IMG/VR virus record: IMGVR_UViG_2660237930_000004
DNA length: 18,569 bases
Direction: 5' to 3' (one strand)
Origin: a virus
Lineage: Duplodnaviria > Heunggongvirae > Uroviricota > Caudoviricetes
Position 1 is the first letter of the stretch; each line of letters opens with the position of its first letter. The notes under the pieces are model-generated. The model did no database searches and was not told the origin of the DNA. It saw only the letters and a list, made by a program, of their open reading frames with translations. A program made the translations under genes and the position numbers. Of the stretch, positions 6,269 through 6,324 are shown one piece after another.

Positions 6269-6324
6269 GGCAGCTATCCAGTACAGCGCCGTACCAGGCA
6301 GCTATCCAGTACAGCGCCGTACCA
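6269..6324. repeat. Perfect 28-bp tandem duplication (2 copies) inside J
   Basis: ggcagctatccagtacagcgccgtacca at 6269..6296 is repeated exactly at 6297..6324; 28 is not a multiple of 3. Confidence 0.95.

Follow-up and report, generated by a model that had tools for sequence, protein, structure and literature searches.

A perfect 28-bp tandem duplication in prophage gene J of a draft Escherichia coli genome, a probable assembly artefact

In the 18,569-nucleotide stretch of DNA analysed here (the window), the host-specificity gene J of a lambda-type prophage is interrupted by a perfect 28-bp tandem duplication. The question raised by this locus is whether the duplication is carried by the bacterium, be it as an ordinary pseudogene lesion, as a reversible switch of tail production or as the outcome of a duplication-prone mutational process, or whether it belongs to the draft assembly in which it is recorded.

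The duplication and the gene that it interrupts

Two identical 28-mers (GGCAGCTATCCAGTACAGCGCCGTACCA, twice) stand head to tail at nt 2298-2353 of the ~3.4-kb J gene, i.e. at codon 766-784 of ~1150, and were found by TRF, by a script and by a repeat search (Table 1). By the same three means the two-copy limit was exact, the 28-bp periodicity extending to neither side, and both the position and the perfect identity of the copies that had been given in the initial annotation proved correct. At the junction between copy 1 and copy 2, GCGCCGTACCA is directly followed by GGCAGCTATCC (in short form, CGCCGTACCA by GGCAGCTATC). The chance expectation in 18.6 kb is ~4e-7 perfect tandem repeats with a period of 18-50. 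The endpoints of the duplication showed 0 nt of flanking microhomology, and an imperfect inverted repeat brackets the 28-bp unit (folding z = -1.6).

The predicted frameshift, with truncation of J after about 792 aa, was also seen: the native sequence runs to ...YWIAA775 and then gives way to a short out-of-frame tail and a stop codon. The truncated product contains FNIII-A_GpJ, Phage-tail_3, Ig_J and part of Ig_J_second, and because the break at residue 775 falls inside Ig_J_second (residues 716-818), it lacks Phage_Tail_Tip and Ig_GpJ_C. These last two domains are left in a separate ORF, whose GTG 'start' is merely the first start codon past the stop, and a single uninterrupted J ORF comprising the hub, the fibre and the receptor-binding domain is not present in the record, which has the 792-aa and 356-aa ORFs instead. 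Removal of one copy restored a single 1147-aa ORF, reading across the repaired site as had been stated in the initial annotation. In this repaired J, FNIII-A_GpJ, Phage-tail_3, Ig_J, Ig_J_second, Phage_Tail_Tip and Ig_GpJ_C were all detected above the Pfam cut-off and in order, and a phmmer search of the PDB aligned it end to end with lambda J (8iyk_J, 2276 bits, query 1-1146 vs chain 1-1131), confirming that the gene is a lambda-type host-specificity gene J. The domain order is the same as that of the lambda tip attachment protein J (PDB 8iyk, 8xcg), from which the window gene differs in that the 28-bp duplication splits it at residue 775 and that it carries a private 16-aa insertion. The latter is due to a second private event, a complex 48-nt in-frame insertion that adds 16 aa at the start of the fibre region; it was found neither in lambda J, nor in either of two sister assemblies, nor among the top matches in complete E. 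coli genomes.

Table 1. Positions of the J duplication, of the affected ORFs and of other private events; coordinates refer to the window unless another sequence is named.
Feature	Position	Strand	Remark
Copy 1 of the perfect 28-bp tandem duplication, gene J	6269-6296	-	TRF, script, repeat search
Copy 2 of the 28-bp duplication, gene J	6297-6324	-	Novel junction at 6296/6297
Truncated J ORF, 792 aa	6243-8621	-	775 native + 17 out-of-frame residues, then stop
Remainder of J, 356-aa ORF	5150-6220	-	Phage_Tail_Tip fibre domain and Ig_GpJ_C receptor-binding domain
Second private J event, complex 48-nt in-frame insertion	6046-6140	-	19-nt noisy partial copy between two copies of a 29-nt stretch
78-aa and 110-aa ORFs of the split gpI (tail assembly protein)	8682-9331	-	Net +2 nt scramble at 9020 and 9028
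Tape-measure gene H, private insertion of 3 nt	12577-12579	-	855 aa vs 854
Perfect 27-bp in-frame tandem duplication in gpU	15329-15385	-	3 nt flanking homology; not in sister AOQN
22-bp tandem duplication in J of AOQJ01000313.1	L019 1558-1599		
27-bp tandem duplication in J of AOQJ01000313.1	L019 2534-2592		
21-bp tandem duplication in J of AOQJ01000313.1	L019 2930-2974		

The source contig and its relatives

The exact 792-aa protein is encoded on one public contig only, AOQL01000047.1 (31,990 bp) of the draft assembly GCA_000397425.1 (hereafter AOQL), and the window makes up the final 18.6 kb of this contig, on which the duplication lies at 19689-19744 (contig position = window position + 13420). 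The window carries a lambda-type morphogenesis module in the order D-E-FI-FII-Z-U-V-G-T-H-M-L-K-I-J-lom-stf, inserted beside sitABCD, in which J has the same neighbourhood as in the lambda tail module (Z-U-V-G-T-H-M-L-K-I-J-lom-stf). The window end at 18569 is 1 nt short of the contig end, in the head-gene region upstream of D, and since this end lies inside the head-gene region, the prophage is split across contigs in the AOQL draft.

Prophage relatives with an intact 1131-aa J are common. The relative FDAARGOS_1261 (L001) is 99.9% identical across window 1-6073, and the complete genome CP164776.1 (L006) differs by ~16 SNPs in 20 kb; J is intact at 1131 aa in these two, in a further relative (L007) and in the sister assembly AOQN (L017/L021), none of which has the 28-bp duplication. 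A common 346-aa tail-fibre protein was present in 5,733 blocks of the searched collection, and the Stf protein was unique. The stf gene (2019-4418, 799 aa) itself contains imperfect 189-, 42- and 21-bp repeats at window 3451-3899 (74-85% identity), which also occur in relatives and are therefore different in kind from the perfect private duplications; in FDAARGOS_1261, stf is called as fragments or pseudogenes by PGAP, though the ORF is identical and open.

A 40-mer centred on the junction (6277-6316) was searched for in 5,426 complete E. coli genomes and matched none of them, and each of the J-site matches listed among these genomes spans one copy. Likewise, the junction 28-mer was found in none of the GTDB species representatives, IMG/VR and the JGI metagenomes, and no Logan contig had the truncated proteins. 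The variant U and J proteins were found on contig AOQL01000047.1 alone, and complete E. coli genomes showed none of the U, 48-nt J and gpI variants among their best matches. No polymorphism in repeat copy number was observed at the J site among related genomes, all other sequences examined being single-copy.

These observations bear on the reading preferred in the initial annotation, in which J is an unstable on/off locus and a reverting duplication toggles the production of infective tails. Short tandem duplications are able to revert by slippage, and loss of one copy does restore the reading frame exactly, so that, as in contingency loci and phase variation, a change in copy number would flip the frame on or off. 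However, in known contingency loci units of 1-8 nt are present in many copies, close to the promoter or the 5' end, and the loci vary from strain to strain, whereas J of the window has two 28-mer copies deep in the gene and no array of short (1-8 nt) units in its promoter or at its 5' end, and no other sequence shows polymorphism, the junction being unmatched in the 5,426 complete genomes and three other collections. Two further results, described below, argue against such a switch: similar duplications in sitA, sitC, sitD, U and other genes rule out a J-specific mechanism, and because gpI is also frameshifted in the record, reversion of J alone would not restore tails. We therefore give the on/off reading almost no credence.

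Insertions along the contig and in its sister assemblies

The AOQL sequence (L002, L015 and L022, ~26.5 kb in total) was compared with L006 and L001. All length differences between the AOQL contig and L006 (~16 SNPs in 20 kb) were insertions in AOQL, and the ~26.5 kb contained eight private tandem duplications of 18-48 bp, namely 28 and 48 nt in J, 27 nt in gpU, 27 nt in sitD, 18 nt in sitC, 33 nt in sitA, 34 nt in a DUF1398 gene and 24 nt at the 3' end of an MlrA-like gene. Six of them were strictly perfect and two were near-perfect or complex; the 27-, 18- and 33-bp events of sitD, sitC and sitA were perfect or near-perfect. By comparison, the homologous loci of 11 other assemblies, 234,876 nt in sum, yielded no perfect tandem duplication with a period of 15-60, so the number of duplications in AOQL, spread across unrelated genes, is far above background (8 in ~26.5 kb vs 0 in 235 kb). 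The sit, DUF1398 and MlrA-like events are located in the chromosomal flank just outside the window (L015 14419-20006). Flanking microhomology at the seven simple duplications was 0, 3, 0, 5, 0, 1 and 1 nt, the 5 nt being ATGAT at the 18-mer and the 3 nt being CAG at the 27-mer of U.

These insertions alter several products. The duplication in the tail terminator gpU adds PAQVPDSEL (140 aa vs 131), and that in the DUF1398 gene shortens its product from 134 to 118 aa. Smaller insertion clusters amounted to +2 in gpI, +3 in sitD, +9 in sitB and +3 in H, the last being L022 5992-5994 (window coordinate = 18571 minus L022 position). In sitB, 5 insertions and 4 substitutions fall within 40 nt and scramble the H-loop of the ABC transporter from LVSTHNLGSV to LVTTLRDNHGSWSK. 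In addition, eight AOQL-private SNPs were A->C in C/G-rich context. The SNPs private with respect to AOQN lie at window 7527, 7530, 12527, 13310, 15071, 3580 and 3756 (and 16201) and, read on the coding strand of the phage, most of them are A->C, in C/G-rich contexts such as gggggcC and gaagccC. The private A->C changes look like base-calling errors; a mutT-like spectrum is also conceivable.

By looking up the 110-aa gpI fragment, the same prophage was found in AOQN01000031.1 (GCA_000397465.1) and AOQJ01000313.1 (GCA_000397385.1), which belong to the same accession block and are referred to as AOQN and AOQJ. AOQN differs from AOQL by ~15 SNPs over an overlap of 20 kb and has none of its duplications (J 1131 aa, U 131 aa, sitD 285 aa); apart from +2 nt in gpI and +2 nt close to where lom ends, it has no private events. 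AOQJ, which shows 1 SNP relative to L006 over 5.3 kb, is also without the 28- and 48-nt J events; it has tandem duplications of its own (22, 27 and 21 bp) along with insertions of +1, +6 and +2 nt, and its J is broken differently. At ~500 nt past lom, the AOQJ contig (L019) enters an ADH_N gene fragment, not stf, a passage that may be a chimeric join. No event was common to AOQL, AOQN and AOQJ, and all of the length differences over the three assemblies (19/19) were insertions. The density of events was 1.1/kb in AOQJ (5.8-kb contig), 0.45/kb in AOQL (32 kb) and 0.1/kb in AOQN (38 kb), and therefore tracks contig fragmentation.

Certain sites were affected more than once. The 21-bp duplication of AOQJ stops 1 nt before the start of the 28-bp unit of AOQL, and gpI has a net +2 change in each of the three sister assemblies, always within one 20-nt stretch but each time a different one. 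The gpI scramble falls where differences from a paralogous gpI allele are clustered, and the extra G of AOQL matches this allele; to judge from these letters, reads from two prophage copies may have been mixed in one consensus at this site. Chimeras between paralogous prophages were rejected as a general cause, as the single-copy sit genes are affected too, and at the J site the paralog SNPs are too dense for a coincidence to be meaningful.

With these data, the simplest biological reading can be weighed, namely that a real and recent tandem duplication arose by slippage or template switching and left J as a pseudogene in the ordinary decay of a tail-defective prophage, with no regulatory role. 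Slipped-strand frameshift pseudogenes in decaying prophages likewise show a perfect short duplication, not a multiple of three, that truncates a lambdoid structural gene, and the duplication in J is perfect and stands in a public record. J-fragment frameshifts are indeed frequent in public E. coli assemblies (the 792-aa protein falls in a cluster of 16,895 proteins, of which many are partial), and prophage decay would be consistent with the disruption of gpI in each of the three sister assemblies; the inverted repeat around the 28-bp unit and the microhomology at two other duplications would fit slippage. However, the J duplication has no microhomology at its endpoints, it is absent from AOQN, whose prophage is otherwise almost identical, and it belongs to an abnormal insertion-only series that extends into single-copy chromosomal genes. 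Moreover, hairpins or quasi-palindromes could not be retained as hot spots, because ten events were not lower in folding energy than random windows (Fisher p 0.33). As regards gpI, its lesions were not inherited from a common ancestor, because all three differ from one another. Taken together, an ordinary slippage pseudogene appears unlikely; a real duplication would make J a prophage pseudogene of a common kind, at best a curiosity as regards the reversibility of the lesion.

Origin of the duplications

The recurrence of events at the same sites in the sisters (the AOQJ 21-bp unit beside the AOQL 28-bp unit, and gpI in all three) would also be expected from a real duplication-prone mutational process in clonal isolates, such as a Pol I 5'-nuclease or FEN1-type flap-processing defect, with selection of in-frame events. 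This reading could accommodate the insertion-only spectrum, the two duplications with microhomology and the excess of lengths that are a multiple of three (8/11, p ~0.009; 6/8 for AOQL alone, p ~0.02). On the other hand, the density of events would mean thousands of insertions per genome: at 0.45 events/kb, ~2,000 insertions would have to be reconciled with an SNP divergence of <0.1%, which we consider implausible. No event is common to the three near-identical sisters, hence a phylogenetic signal is lacking; both the scrambled H-loop of sitB and the A->C SNPs found in C-rich context resemble base-calling noise; and event density follows assembly fragmentation. Most of the duplications are without the flanking short direct repeats that are typical of flap-processing defects, and the AOQL duplications do not show this signature. 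A mutational process of this kind is therefore extremely unlikely. Selection was also rejected as the cause of the in-frame excess, which is modest (p ~0.01-0.02) and includes genes of an already dead prophage, and the sitB H-loop scramble argues against it. In its broader form, a real burst of 18-48 bp duplications at recurrent hot spots in clonal E. coli, filtered towards in-frame events and striking J and gpI independently, we regard as very improbable; it would amount to an undescribed duplication-mutator phenotype, or to convergent inactivation of prophage tail-tip genes.

In the record, the 28-bp duplication breaks J, is part of an insertion-only series in unrelated genes and is missing from the sister assemblies; only one assembly has it, and independent, near-identical ones do not. 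We consider it very probable that it is a feature of the draft GCA_000397425.1 and not of the bacterium. An assembler or a contig-joining step would have abutted two pieces that overlapped by 28 nt and left the overlap unmerged, and such an unmerged overlap would yield a perfect head-to-tail duplicate in J. The same joining process, sometimes with error-rich read ends, could also account for the insertion scrambles and the remaining duplications of 18-48 bp. In the 33-bp and 22-bp duplications, mismatches occur in the first copy alone and only at its end, a pattern that would follow from an error-rich end abutting a piece that starts a few tens of bases upstream. Under this assembly-artefact reading, the real prophage most likely carries an intact 1131-aa J like its near-identical relatives. 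The initial annotation had ascribed the perfect identity to a recent event or an assembly artefact; the artefact, then named as the alternative, is now favoured, and a recent, reversible and J-specific lesion is unsupported.

Assembly errors of this type have been documented (Rhie et al. 2021, PMC8081667): where sequence overlaps at the boundaries of contigs, false tandem duplications can arise. The false 'homotype' duplications described there resemble the present case in that the sequence of a single locus is repeated head to tail at a join of overlapping but unmerged ends, and in that they are confined to one assembly, create false frameshifts and gene fragments, and vanish in better assemblies. 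They differ in that they come from long-read vertebrate assemblies and are of read length, whereas the duplications here are of 18-48 bp in a bacterial draft of the ~2013 era. A naive artefact model predicts neither the excess of multiples of three nor the 3-5 nt of microhomology at two duplications. A fixed k-mer overlap left by a de Bruijn assembler was rejected, as the lengths (18, 21, 22, 24, 27, 27, 27, 28, 33, 34 and 48) are too variable. A search of the literature found no description of the sequencing and assembly methods for accessions AOQI-AOQO and GCA_000397425.

Since the 28-bp duplication of J is most likely not a real biological feature, its main value, as a probable artefact, lies in a warning about draft assemblies. 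GCA_000397425.1 and at least its sister GCA_000397385.1 would contain short false duplications and scrambles at ~0.5-1 per kb, and such false insertions yield spurious frameshifts, split genes and in-frame insertions; the cases seen here are J, gpI, U, SitA-D and the DUF1398 protein. Pseudogene calls, 'novel' variants and repeat-based hypotheses derived from records of this kind are untrustworthy without the reads. The same prophage also occurs in an unrelated assembly, GCA_949813115.1 (L016/L020, 5.3-Mb contig), where Z, G, H, L, K, I and J are split; one of these splits is caused by a -1 change in a T5 run at the gpI site, and the split genes look like homopolymer errors of a long-read assembly.
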